Shown here: in pieces, positions 2,436-43,338 of the stretch
Layout of the letters: each line of letters starts with the position of its first letter
How positions within the stretch are numbered: position 1 is the stretch's first letter
IMG/VR virus record: IMGVR_UViG_3300013829_000018
Span: 1-44,786 of that record
Direction: 5' to 3' (one strand)
Source of the DNA: a virus
Taxonomy: Duplodnaviria; Caudoviricetes
DNA length: 44,786 bases
The notes under the pieces: generated by a model
What the model saw: only the letters and a program-made list of their open reading frames with translations
Told to the model about the DNA's origin: nothing
Database searches by the model: none
Position numbers and translations under genes: made by a program

Positions 2436-2512
2436 GCGCCCGTAGCTCAGTCGGATAGAGCGATAGCCTCCTAAGCTGTAGGCCACAGGTTCGATTCCTG
2501 TCGGGCGCACCA
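2436..2512 (+). tRNA. tRNA-Arg (anticodon CCT, reads AGG)
   Basis: 77-nt cloverleaf: acceptor stem GCGCCCG/CGGGCGC, TAGCTCAG D-arm, anticodon loop CTCCTAA, GGTTCGATTCC T-loop, encoded CCA. Confidence 0.98.
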
Positions 2513-28993: not shown

Positions 28994-29050
28994 ATGTATT
29001 GAATGCATATTTTTGTTGACGCCGCGCCAGGAAGTATATATTGAATACAC
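28994..29050 (+). promoter_or_regulatory. hicAB promoter with two imperfect palindromic operators
   Basis: TTGACG 29016-29021, TATATT 29037-29042; ATGTATT-G-AATGCAT (28994-29008) and ATATATT-G-AATACAC (29036-29050). Confidence 0.65.
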
Positions 29051-29236
29051 ATGGACAGCAGGGAAATACTCAAGCGGCTGAAGGCGGAAGGGTGGTACGA
29101 AATCGGACAACGCGGTTCCCATGTCCAGCTGAAGCACCCCGAACGGCCCGGCAAGGTCACGGTGCCCCACCCGCGAAAGGACGTCCCCCTGAAAACCCAA
29201 AGGAGCATAGAGCAGCAGTCGGGAACCAAGATGTGA
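29051..29236 (+). CDS. hicA: HicA family toxin (mRNA interferase)
   Basis: REILKRLKAEGW..RGSHVQLKHP..GKVTVPHPRKD. Confidence 0.96.
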   Translation: MDSREILKRLKAEGWYEIGQRGSHVQLKHPERPGKVTVPHPRKDVPLKTQRSIEQQSGTKM

Positions 29237-29293: not shown

Positions 29294-29701
29294 ATGCGAT
29301 ACTACGTGGCATTTCTGGACCCGGAAGGAGACGGCAGCGCGTACAACGTGACCTTTCCGGACCTGCCCGGCTGCATCAGCTGCGGCGATACCGTGGACGA
29401 GGCCGTGGCCATGGCCACGGAGGCGTTGCCCCTGCACCTGGAAGGCATGCAGGCGGACGGGGACGCCATCCCCGATCCCACCCCCCTGGAACGCATCGCC
29501 CGCGCCCCGGAACTGGCCCAGGCCTTCGCCGTGCTTATCCCCGCGCCGGACATGGCCAAGCCCAAGCCGGTGCGCCTTTCCATCACCATGCGGGAGGACA
29601 TCTTGCACAAGGTGGACGCGGCGGCAGAGGCGGAGGGCATGACCAGATCCGGCTTTCTGGCGGCGGCCGCGCAGGACTTCATCCGGCGGCAGAGCGTGTA
29701 A
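29294..29701 (+). CDS. hicB: HicB family antitoxin with C-terminal RHH
   Basis: VTFPDLPGCISCGDT.DEA..MA.EAL, IPDPT, VRLSITM..L..VD..TRSGFL. Confidence 0.96.
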   Translation: MRYYVAFLDPEGDGSAYNVTFPDLPGCISCGDTVDEAVAMATEALPLHLEGMQADGDAIPDPTPLERIARAPELAQAFAVLIPAPDMAKPKPVRLSITMREDILHKVDAAAEAEGMTRSGFLAAAAQDFIRRQSV

Positions 29702-29809
29702 GGCAGGACGGGGTTGATGAAGTTATGGAAGGCGGAAGAAGTGGGTGATAACCAGTGTCCCGAGGTTATTTCCCGTTGACTTAAAGCAACCAGTTGGTAG
29801 AACCTCGAA

Positions 29810-29937
29810 ATGGAAGAAGCGCGAAGGTTCCAGCTTCGCGCTTCCTCGGGCCTAGTAGCTACTTTGCGGCACCGGCCCTGTCCTTCAGGACAACTTGGCG
29901 GCCTCCTTGCTCACGCGGGGAGGCTGTCCGCGTTTCA
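29810..29937 (+). ncRNA. Putative structured antisense/antitoxin sRNA (ends approximate)
   Basis: Upstream TTGACT-16-(TG)TAGAAC; hairpins at 29816-29844, 29848-29878, 29879-29892 and 29897-29928. Confidence 0.45.
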
Positions 29938-29945
29938 ATGTCCCG

Positions 29946-30020
29946 CTACCAGCGGGACAGCGCCCACATGACGATCACGTTGGTGATCTGCCATGCGAAC
30001 ATCAGGTCGGATTTGCTTAT
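29946..30020 (-). CDS. Putative 24-aa hydrophobic peptide (type I toxin-like), ATA start
   Basis: AAAGGAG 7 nt before ATA; (M)SKSDLMFAWQITNVIVMWALSRW*; GC3-rich codons. Confidence 0.5.
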   Translation of the reverse strand: MSKSDLMFAWQITNVIVMWALSRW

Positions 30021-30268
30021 AGTGCAACTCCTTTCGATGTCTGCGCTACTTGGTGCCGCGTTGAGAAGTGTATAGCCGAAAAACGACCGGGCCGGATGAT
30101 GGGACGTTCATCCGGACGCGGTATTTCAACGCAATTAAATGTAATAGTAGGATAAAAAAATTATTCTGCGGTGGCGAGGACGCGCGCTTGCTTGTCCCGT
30201 TGCGTTGAATACGATACCGACCAACGCGCCTATCTTCTCACCGTCCGGCCACGCGTTATGATGCGCCC

Positions 30269-30568
30269 ATGTCCGCCGATGATTCCCGCCTGTTCGACCC
30301 CTTGGCCTGGCTGCTGACCAACGGCTGCAAGCCGGAGGTGCTGCGCGACGCTGAAGGCCGCCCGCGCCGCCTGCTGTTGCACCACGATAGGCGCGGCATG
30401 GGCGTGCCGGAACGCATGGCCCGCGCCACCATGATGGCGGAGCGGTTCAAAGGGCTTATCCTGCTGCAGCTGGACGTGGAAAAGGGCCAGCGCCCGCGCT
30501 CCGTGCGCTGGCTGCTGGCCCATGGGATCATCGAGTTGCGGCGGGGACGGTACGTGCGGCGGGGCTGA
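30269..30568 (+). CDS. Hypothetical phage protein
   Basis: 99-aa ORF; TATGAT -10 box 6 nt before ATG; ends at a hairpin. Confidence 0.65.
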   Translation: MSADDSRLFDPLAWLLTNGCKPEVLRDAEGRPRRLLLHHDRRGMGVPERMARATMMAERFKGLILLQLDVEKGQRPRSVRWLLAHGIIELRRGRYVRRG

Positions 30569-30600: not shown

Positions 30601-30738
30601 TTACTTCTTCTTCGGCCCGGTGCGAACGCGCTCCTTCTCCGTCGTCGCTGGGTGCTTCTTGGCGTAATCCTCCGTGACGAACTGGCCGTCCTTCGAATCA
30701 CGATGCACCGTCTTCTTCGGCTCTTCCTTCTTGGCCAT
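30601..30738 (-). CDS. 45-aa basic small protein (not in the ORF track)
   Basis: GAGG SD; MAKKEEPKKTVHRDSKDGQFVTEDYAKKHPATTEKERVRTGPKKK*; strongly biased codons. Confidence 0.8.
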   Translation of the reverse strand: MAKKEEPKKTVHRDSKDGQFVTEDYAKKHPATTEKERVRTGPKKK

Positions 30739-43078: not shown

Positions 43079-43300
43079 TTCGCGGCTGCTCCGCACGTGC
43101 GGTGCCGCGCATGGGCGGCGTACGAGGCTTTCTCGGCGAATCCCGGCATCAATCCATGGGGGCGTTCCGACACTCTTGGGCGCTTTTTCCCCTCGCCGGA
43201 ATTTTTAGGCCATGCGCAGCCCATCACGTTCCCTTGTGATCGTAAGCCGACTACGTTGGCGGGCCGAAATCATCCAGGTCCGGCCTGTGTCACCCTCGGC

Positions 43301-43338
43301 AAAAAGAAAACCGCCCCTTTCGGGGCGGTTTTCTTTTT
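43301..43338. terminator. Bidirectional rho-independent terminator
   Basis: AAAAAGAAAACCGCCCC-tttc-GGGGCGGTTTTCTTTTT between convergent genes. Confidence 0.9.

Follow-up and report, generated by a model that had tools for sequence, protein, structure and literature searches.

A conserved, unannotated module beside hicAB in a myophage-type genome: a possible type I toxin-antitoxin system with an ATA-initiated peptide

Results

The phage and its cargo slot

The window, by which we mean the whole 44.8-kb stretch of DNA that was analysed, coincides with its virus record, is 83% complete, and carries primase, terminase, portal, capsid, contractile-tail and baseplate genes as well as a repressor; it is a myophage-type genome. 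Its host is likely Nitratidesulfovibrio (Desulfovibrionaceae), a sulfate-reducing bacterium, since the product of a 102-aa ORF in the window has 77% identity to a protein whose name refers to Nitratidesulfovibrio sp. HK-II. The envelope of Nitratidesulfovibrio is Gram-negative. Directly 3' of hicAB and 5' of this ORF lies a module that extends from about 29776 to 30090 (a cassette of ~320 bp) and has features on both strands, which, together with the flanking genes, are as follows:

29051..29236, plus strand: hicA, type II toxin (PF07927, E 1.9e-19; phrog_353)
29294..29701, plus strand: hicB, type II antitoxin (PF15919, E 5e-33)
29776..29803, plus strand: candidate sigma70-type sRNA promoter read from the sequence, TTGACT (29776-29781), 16 nt, TGn-TAGAAC, with the -10 at 29798-29803
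29807..29960, plus strand: predicted antisense sRNA of ~150 nt, 5' end near 29807-29809 (fold z -6.5)
29813-29847, 29848-29878, 29879-29892, 29897-29928 and 29939-29959, plus strand: predicted hairpins of the sRNA
29805..30061, minus strand: predicted peptide mRNA of ~255 nt, with a 5'-3' helix, a multi-branch body and a terminator-like hairpin (fold z -5.4, pair probabilities)
29813..29847, minus strand: 14-bp hairpin, then a weak pyrimidine/U tail, likely the mRNA terminator (inverted repeat I1)
29851..29859, minus strand: 3' element of helix H2, which can pair with the leader at 30053-30045 (inverted repeat I21)
29866..29873, minus strand: 3' arm of helix H1, GGUGCCGC (pair probability 0.98)
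29946..30020, minus strand: 24-codon ORF, (M)SKSDLMFAWQITNVIVMWALSRW, ATA start at 30020-30018, TAG stop at 29948-29946
30028..30033, minus strand: Shine-Dalgarno (SD) sequence AAGGAG, 7-nt spacer to the ATA
30052..30059, minus strand: 5' arm of helix H1, GCGGCACC (inverted repeat I17)
30067..30090, minus strand: candidate mRNA promoter read from the sequence, -10-like TATACACT at 30074-30067, no recognisable -35
30260..30568, plus strand: 102-aa ORF that bounds the cargo slot on its far side (relatives in 6 viral loci)

Related genomes fill this position in other ways. A related provirus (L008) matches the window at 94% in hicAB and at 86% in the 102-aa ORF and has different genes in between; the module is missing from all six viral loci with the 102-aa ORF (five whole records and a sixth); and in L025 an AbiJ_NTD4/DUF7014 gene occupies the slot ahead of the 102-aa ORF homologue. 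Judged from these gene orders, the slot between hicAB and the 102-aa ORF is a variable cargo site.

Several other features were observed in these sequences. The 102-aa ORF homologue of L025 (8001-8297) has, close to its start, a TAG in frame at a position that encodes Trp in the others, and the slot 3' of hicB in L008 (1081-1450) contains two near-identical, strong sigma70-like promoters, each preceding small ORFs. In the window, hicA is without an SD and promoter-like hexamers end right before its ATG (29016-29053), and it may be leaderless; the same layout is found in L008. Just 5' of the sRNA -35 box lies an 11-bp imperfect inverted repeat (29743-29774), largely retained in the related sequence X8, which could be the terminator of hicAB or an operator. 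Further away, a 45-aa, highly charged ORF on the minus strand (30601-30738) gives a weak PBCV_basic_adap match (E 0.011, under the cut-off); the early genes and primase are separated by a tRNA gene (2436-2509, plus strand; Rfam RF00005, 72 bits); and a perfect hairpin of G+C at about 43298-43335, flanked by A-rich and T-rich stretches and likely a bidirectional terminator, is enclosed by a 160-nt segment that folds at z -5.9.

Motifs and predicted folds

The motifs and hairpins that the initial annotation had listed on both strands are all present, base for base. We also confirmed the positions of its two repeats, GCTACTT (repeat A, at 29858 and 30045) and CTCCTT (repeat B, at 29903 and 30028), and of the GCGGCACC/GGTGCCGC arms at 29866 and 30052, for which the proposed 5'-3' long-range helix is indeed predicted. 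Repeats of 6-7 nt are, by their length alone, attributable to chance, and an SD combined with a near-cognate start and a frame of 15-60 codons occurs at 4 of the 75 AGGAG sites across the window. The AAGGAG motif is identical to that of the phage sheath gene and similarly spaced, and the TAG stop sits within a perfect 9-bp hairpin (29939-29959). A consensus scan of the module called no promoter and no terminator, the sRNA promoter falling under the scan threshold, and the predicted 3' end of the sRNA is uncertain, as a U-tract is absent. The sRNA hairpin at 29848-29878 is weak, with its loop at 29860-29865. The putative mRNA terminator hairpin (29813-29847) is complementary to the sRNA 5' hairpin, and both of its listed variant sites lie in the loop.

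Both strands are predicted to fold far more stably than shuffled sequences, with z -6.5 for 29805-29965 on the plus strand (0 of 200 shuffles as stable) and z -5.4 for 29790-30090 on the minus strand (0 of 100). When 112 plus-strand segments of 160 nt, one every 400 nt across the phage, were folded, just two, those of the tRNA and of a terminator, had a z under -5; by the same script, the plus-strand half of the module reached z -8.4. Furthermore, the 3' half of the module folds better as plus-strand RNA (-87.7 versus -76.5 kcal/mol on the minus strand), while the coding half folds better as minus-strand RNA (-37.0 versus -31.0 kcal/mol on the plus strand), an asymmetry that fits two convergent RNAs. 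Of 15 variant sites listed for related contigs and placed on the minus-strand fold, six are unpaired, four keep the pair and five break it; for the plus-strand RNA (eight sites) the corresponding counts are five, two and one. Variants that create G-U pairs at 29869 (in the 3' arm of helix H1), 29973 and 30040 agree with the minus-strand fold, and the variant at 29892 agrees with that of the plus strand. Rfam gave nothing for the module at gathering score, the best match (E 1.2) being to unrelated sRNAs.

In the predicted mRNA the 5' arm GCGGCACC pairs with the 3' arm GGUGCCGC at a probability of 0.98, the GGA core of the SD is paired with codons 2-4 (probability at least 0.96), and the ATA lies in a loop. 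Opening the ribosome footprint at the ATA would cost 11.4 kcal/mol, as compared with 4.8-21.8 kcal/mol at 11 ordinary phage sites (one of them centred slightly off its start), and this cost is unaffected in silico by 3' truncation of the mRNA. Since the opening cost is ordinary and insensitive to truncation, the SD lock appears modest, with no sign of a hok-like switch activated by processing. Helix H2 (30053-30045 with 29859-29851) scores +4.4 kcal/mol as an alternative fold and leaves the predicted access to the ribosome site unchanged. A matching A-U to G-C change in this helix is spread across two unlinked records of X2; on modelling, H2 could be an alternative fold or a pseudoknot, which we offer as a lead only.

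The initial annotation had proposed that the sRNA pairs with the mRNA leader and SD through the two repeats. Order, accessibility and comparison with shuffled sequences all speak against this: (i) the repeats run A,B...B,A along the module, so that colinear pairing is impossible; (ii) repeat A lies in an sRNA loop with a net energy of -0.4 kcal/mol, and repeat B is buried in a 14-bp stem with a net energy of +16.3 kcal/mol; and (iii) of 300 shuffled leaders, 75% form a duplex with the sRNA that is as good as that of the real leader or better. For a seed in cis, from the sRNA loop to the single-stranded stretch behind the long helix, the net energy is -2.9 kcal/mol.

Conservation in related contigs

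A search of sequencing runs listed 13 runs, 11 of which, from six studies, hold part of the stretch; eight of ten holder runs were compared, and one further holder was set aside as a possible source of the window. The matching records are all assembled contigs, many of them short and unlinked, and several have a depth below 5, at which differences may be errors. No RNA run is among the listed holders, and the runs that carry an RNA label were judged to be probably DNA. X3 and X4 were counted once because they come from one study and have identical listed changes. For the X3/X4 contig 25 of 28 substitutions are listed, and they are unevenly distributed: 14 fall in 141 nt of hicB, seven (along with two deletions) in the 75-nt spacer, and four listed (at most seven) changes in the 317 nt of the module. 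The rates for module and hicB differ at a Fisher p of 4e-5, or 9e-4 with the three unlisted changes all placed in the module. This low divergence, as far as sequence comparison can tell, could reflect selection or a recent transfer of the module.

Similarity to related contigs stops at 30089-30092 in five records. In a more distant one (X2 record 4), the -35 hexamer TTGACT is in register and the spacer length is retained, while seven of the eight bases at 29783-29790 differ from the window; the state of the -10 is not visible there, as differences near record ends are unlisted. Repeat A is altered in this record. In X2 record 6, the SD is retained within a diverged leader.

Beyond these contigs, few matches were found. 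Three of five DNA patterns had no match among viral contigs, and the matches of the other two (six and four) were set aside as chance in view of their lack of further similarity. A codon-degenerate pattern found nothing among metagenome contigs, where an alignment of the peptide gave a single locus (L024) that proved to be a shadow frame of an unrelated gene. Searches with blastn and tblastn of GenBank phages and PLSDB plasmids gave nothing beyond E 0.4, and a search of the ESM Atlas gave no usable match. A peptide profile run against 401 genomes of each of two other phyla gave three and one matches (E 0.001-0.006 per genome), which were rejected as alternative frames of apparently ordinary enzyme genes, at about the number expected by chance. 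A resemblance of 29873-29896 (minus strand) to SrbA of P. aeruginosa (20 of 24 bases, E 1.2) was likewise treated as chance; the SrbA family was matched neither in five genomes nor in 14 controls, and the available text of PMC5542712 describes SrbA as non-coding. As an observation apart from the module, three viral contigs unrelated to it (L020, L021 and L022) share repeat units whose ends (GTCACACCAC ... CAGGTGTCGC) are conserved and whose middles vary.

The peptide

When the 30-codon frame was compared with 1.84 billion protein representatives, one protein, P0009, matched (E 4e-7), a singleton from a 1049-nt contig. From the Ile codon onwards 21 of 24 residues are identical, only F8L, I12L and I16L differing; upstream of the Ile start just one of six aligned residues is identical, and the SD is one base closer. 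At the site of the helix H1 5' arm, P0009 reads A-A-P, which is compatible with the arm. X2 record 6 shows the same two I-to-L changes, and on this similarity it may be of the same lineage as P0009.

All listed DNA variants in the ORF are I-to-L or silent, with no stop or frameshift among them, in what is a small sample. Only 21% of single-base non-synonymous changes are I/L/V/M/F swaps (35% are conservative by a looser, BLOSUM class), so that three conservative changes out of three in P0009 have a p of about 0.01 (0.04 by the looser class). Moreover, both I-to-L changes break the predicted hairpin of the coding sequence, and therefore fit coding over structure at those sites. From these substitution patterns we conclude that the 24-codon ORF is under coding constraint.

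The initial annotation held that ATG variants in homologues would support its reading. None was seen: of the six records that cover the start codon, three have ATA with certainty (X2 record 5, X7 and X9, for which every difference is listed), X3 and X4 probably have it and X2 record 6 is not readable there, and P0009 has Ile. Three other ways of reading the region were rejected. Initiation at an internal ATG (codon 7) would require a footprint opening of 20 versus 11 kcal/mol and has no suitably spaced SD; translational coupling through a 42-codon frame, whose TAA overlaps the ATA, is set aside as the start of that frame lies past the conserved edge; and the plus-strand ORFs (93 aa, 29794-30075, and 53 aa, 29810-29971) are frameshifted in X2 record 4 by deletions at 29862 and 29887. 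No protein relative of the 93-aa ORF was found, and neither plus-strand ORF matches Pfam.

The description of the product as a membrane peptide is a marginal one. GRAVY is 0.52, and the helix is marginal, with a best Kyte-Doolittle mean of 1.46 over 17 residues and 1.08 over 19, an unweighted sum of +6 on an insertion scale, and the polar residues Q11, T13 and N14 at mid-helix. The peptide has no match in Pfam or PHROGs.

Discussion

The module is real, conserved and unannotated. Of the earlier proposal of a peptide mRNA facing a convergent antisense RNA, the arrangement itself is supported by conservation, strand-specific folding and the homologous peptide, while the trans pairing with leader and SD is not supported. 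By analogy, we tentatively favour, at somewhat less than an even chance, a new type I toxin-antitoxin family that would act like bsrG/SR4 or txpA/RatA through a 3' overlap of ~150 nt. The 3' ends of the predicted RNAs overlap across 29807-29960, as those of BsrG/SR4 and TxpA/RatA do, and the predicted sizes (24 aa, an mRNA of ~255 nt and an sRNA of ~150 nt) lie within the ranges given for type I systems in the available text of PMC8594479 (ORF 20-60 aa, mRNA 150-400 nt, antisense RNA 60-200 nt).

The closest likeness is to bsrG/SR4 of the Bacillus subtilis prophage SPbeta, which is also prophage-borne and whose convergent RNAs overlap by ~120 nt at their 3' ends (excerpts of PMC4147584 and PMC3834814). 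The bsrG mRNA, as outlined in parts of PMC3834814, resembles the predicted mRNA in having a 5'-3' helix, a body with branches, a short stem that contains the SD, and a terminator behind the helix. However, the module has no sequence relation to bsrG/SR4 that we could find (Rfam and Pfam were empty), and differs in its likely diderm host, its ATA start and its shorter and less hydrophobic peptide; nor is a tightening of the SD stem predicted on duplex formation (10.0-11.4 versus 11.4 kcal/mol). In txpA/RatA of the B. subtilis skin element, the RNAs likewise overlap at the 3' end, complementarity to the initiation region is not needed, and control is by RNase III decay, as we propose here (excerpts of PMC4147584); TxpA has 59 aa and an overlap of ~75 nt, compared with 24 aa and ~150 nt for the module.

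Other families are more distant. Both hok and aapA have 5'-3' long-range pairing, as does the module, and hok/Sok, aapA/IsoA and ibs/Sib resemble it in encoding a small peptide. In these families the antisense RNA lies over the 5' region or the ORF (available text of PMC8594479), whereas the predicted one of the module covers the 3' UTR, and the module lacks a conserved leader ORF with a start codon. Hok/Sok and Ldr/Rdl have an antisense RNA that is 5' of the ORF and spans a leader ORF, and are activated through 3' processing; in the module the sRNA is 3' of the ORF, and 3' truncation leaves the SD closed in silico. The timP mRNA of timP/TimR has alternative folds and a pseudoknot, which H2 could likewise form with H1, but the timP pseudoknot is needed for translation, whereas H2 leaves predicted ribosome-site access unchanged (parts of PMC11228461).

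If the module works as a bsrG/SR4-like or txpA/RatA-like system, the following sequence of events may be envisaged. An mRNA of ~255 nt, running from ~30061 to the hairpin at 29847-29813, would be closed by the 5'-3' helix, and an sRNA of ~150 nt would start at ~29809 on the opposite strand. The sRNA loop at 29860-29865 would seed on the single-stranded stretch behind the long-range helix H1, and the sRNA, whose sequence includes the GCGGCACC of the mRNA 5' arm, would then invade that helix; the resulting duplex of ~150 bp would be cut by RNase III, by analogy with RatA and SR4. AUA would limit basal output to about 1-2% of that from AUG, a value taken from initiation in E. coli (excerpts of 10.1101/063800), and because of this low level, the second safety catch would be weak initiation, not an SD lock of unusual tightness. 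Loss of the sRNA would free the putative membrane-active peptide, and the likely job of the system, next to hicAB in the cargo slot, would be prophage addiction or abortive defence.

Several observations count against a type I system: the hydrophobicity is marginal, the mRNA has no -35, the sRNA no U-tract, and the scan no match; opening the ATA footprint costs no more than at ordinary phage sites; five of the 15 listed variants break a minus-strand pair and one of eight a plus-strand pair; only one homologous protein and some short, unlinked contigs, in part of low depth, are at hand, and P0009 and X2 record 6 may be one lineage; much of the coding sequence is under RNA-structural constraint; and transfer of the module could be recent. 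The coding and two-RNA evidence fits equally well a peptide that is made and antisense-controlled without being a toxin, such as a small phage protein associated with the membrane that would modulate one of the host's membrane proteins or prevent superinfection. The low hydrophobicity and the conserved W, Q, T and N would suit a specific partner surface, and the SD lock is unexceptional. We nevertheless regard this as improbable, given that a weak start, a long 5'-3' helix and full 3' antisense overlap amount to the layered damping typical of toxins (excerpts of PMC4147584 and PMC3834814) and that the module adjoins hicAB in the cargo slot.

One or both strands might instead yield non-coding structured RNA, the ORF being a by-product of structure or a toxin gene silenced long ago by an ATG-to-ATA change. 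Codons 2-8 and the stop lie within helices, the leader-coding sequence helix seems to covary (X7 has a G-U at 30040), F8L in P0009, given a CTN codon, would fit a G-C pair, and AUA is a poor start of which no ATG copy was seen. This explanation is in our view unlikely, since two replacements break the hairpin of the coding sequence but are conservative, the SD is held 6-7 nt from the Ile codon despite a shift in the leader, and the listed ORF variants include no stop or frameshift; a silenced relic should have decayed, and instead 21 of 24 residues are identical.

It is very improbable that there is no gene pair at all, only several terminators or hairpins grouped downstream of hicAB or a plus-strand ORF (93 aa or 53 aa) shadowed on the other strand. 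In favour of this are the high G+C content, a z of -5.9 for a plain terminator at another place in the window and the empty promoter scan; against it, ~300 nt form one conserved, sharply bounded block, and the plus-strand ORFs are frameshifted in X2 record 4 and without Pfam match, the 93-aa ORF also being without a protein relative. Control of the par (Fst/RNAII) or SprA1 type, with the sRNA occluding the ribosome site in trans via short repeats, is highly unlikely: par and SprA1/SprA1AS share with the module the convergent layout, an overlap mostly outside the ORF and short repeats (both present here, repeat A in an sRNA loop at a net -0.4 kcal/mol), and the overlap ends at about the stop codon as in Fst/RNAII (available text of PMC8594479), but the repeats are non-colinear (A,B...B,A) and cannot pair over the initiation region as DRa/DRb-type repeats do, repeat B costs +16.3 kcal/mol, the duplex does not outscore those of shuffled leaders, repeat A is changed in X2 record 4, no shared bidirectional terminator is evident, and the peptide, having neither P nor G, lacks the APXXXG motif of Fst/Ldr peptides (parts of PMC8309996).

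Returning to the type I reading, our literature search found no type I toxin-antitoxin system described for Desulfovibrio or Desulfobacterota, where supplementary tables of T1TAdb/Fozo could list such loci, and no report of a type I toxin with an AUA start codon. The available text of PMC12654330 names no type I system in Desulfobacterota, and the main text of the T1TAdb paper mentions neither Desulfovibrio nor Deltaproteobacteria (PMC8594479). According to the available part of PMC12390103, type I systems are reported only in Proteobacteria, Firmicutes and Tenericutes, along with one cyanobacterial candidate, a narrow range that the same source attributes to search bias. In T1TAdb, as the available text of PMC8594479 has it, the 3'-overlap layout occurs only in Gram-positive families.

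A more specific reading, which we consider doubtful, is that the module would represent the first type I family of the sulfate-reducing Desulfobacterota, with a tail-to-tail layout, AUA fixed as the start, output dependent on start stringency, and two interlocked 5'-3' helices that are perhaps a pseudoknot switch invaded by the antitoxin. If so, the fixed AUA would make toxin output dependent on start-codon stringency, the province of IF3, and not on mRNA processing. A type I family in Desulfovibrionaceae phages would, if true, widen the range of such systems and break the Gram-positive-only pattern of 3'-overlap systems drawn in the available texts of PMC8594479 and PMC4147584. It would also mean that near-cognate starts, which gene callers miss, can conceal such toxins.
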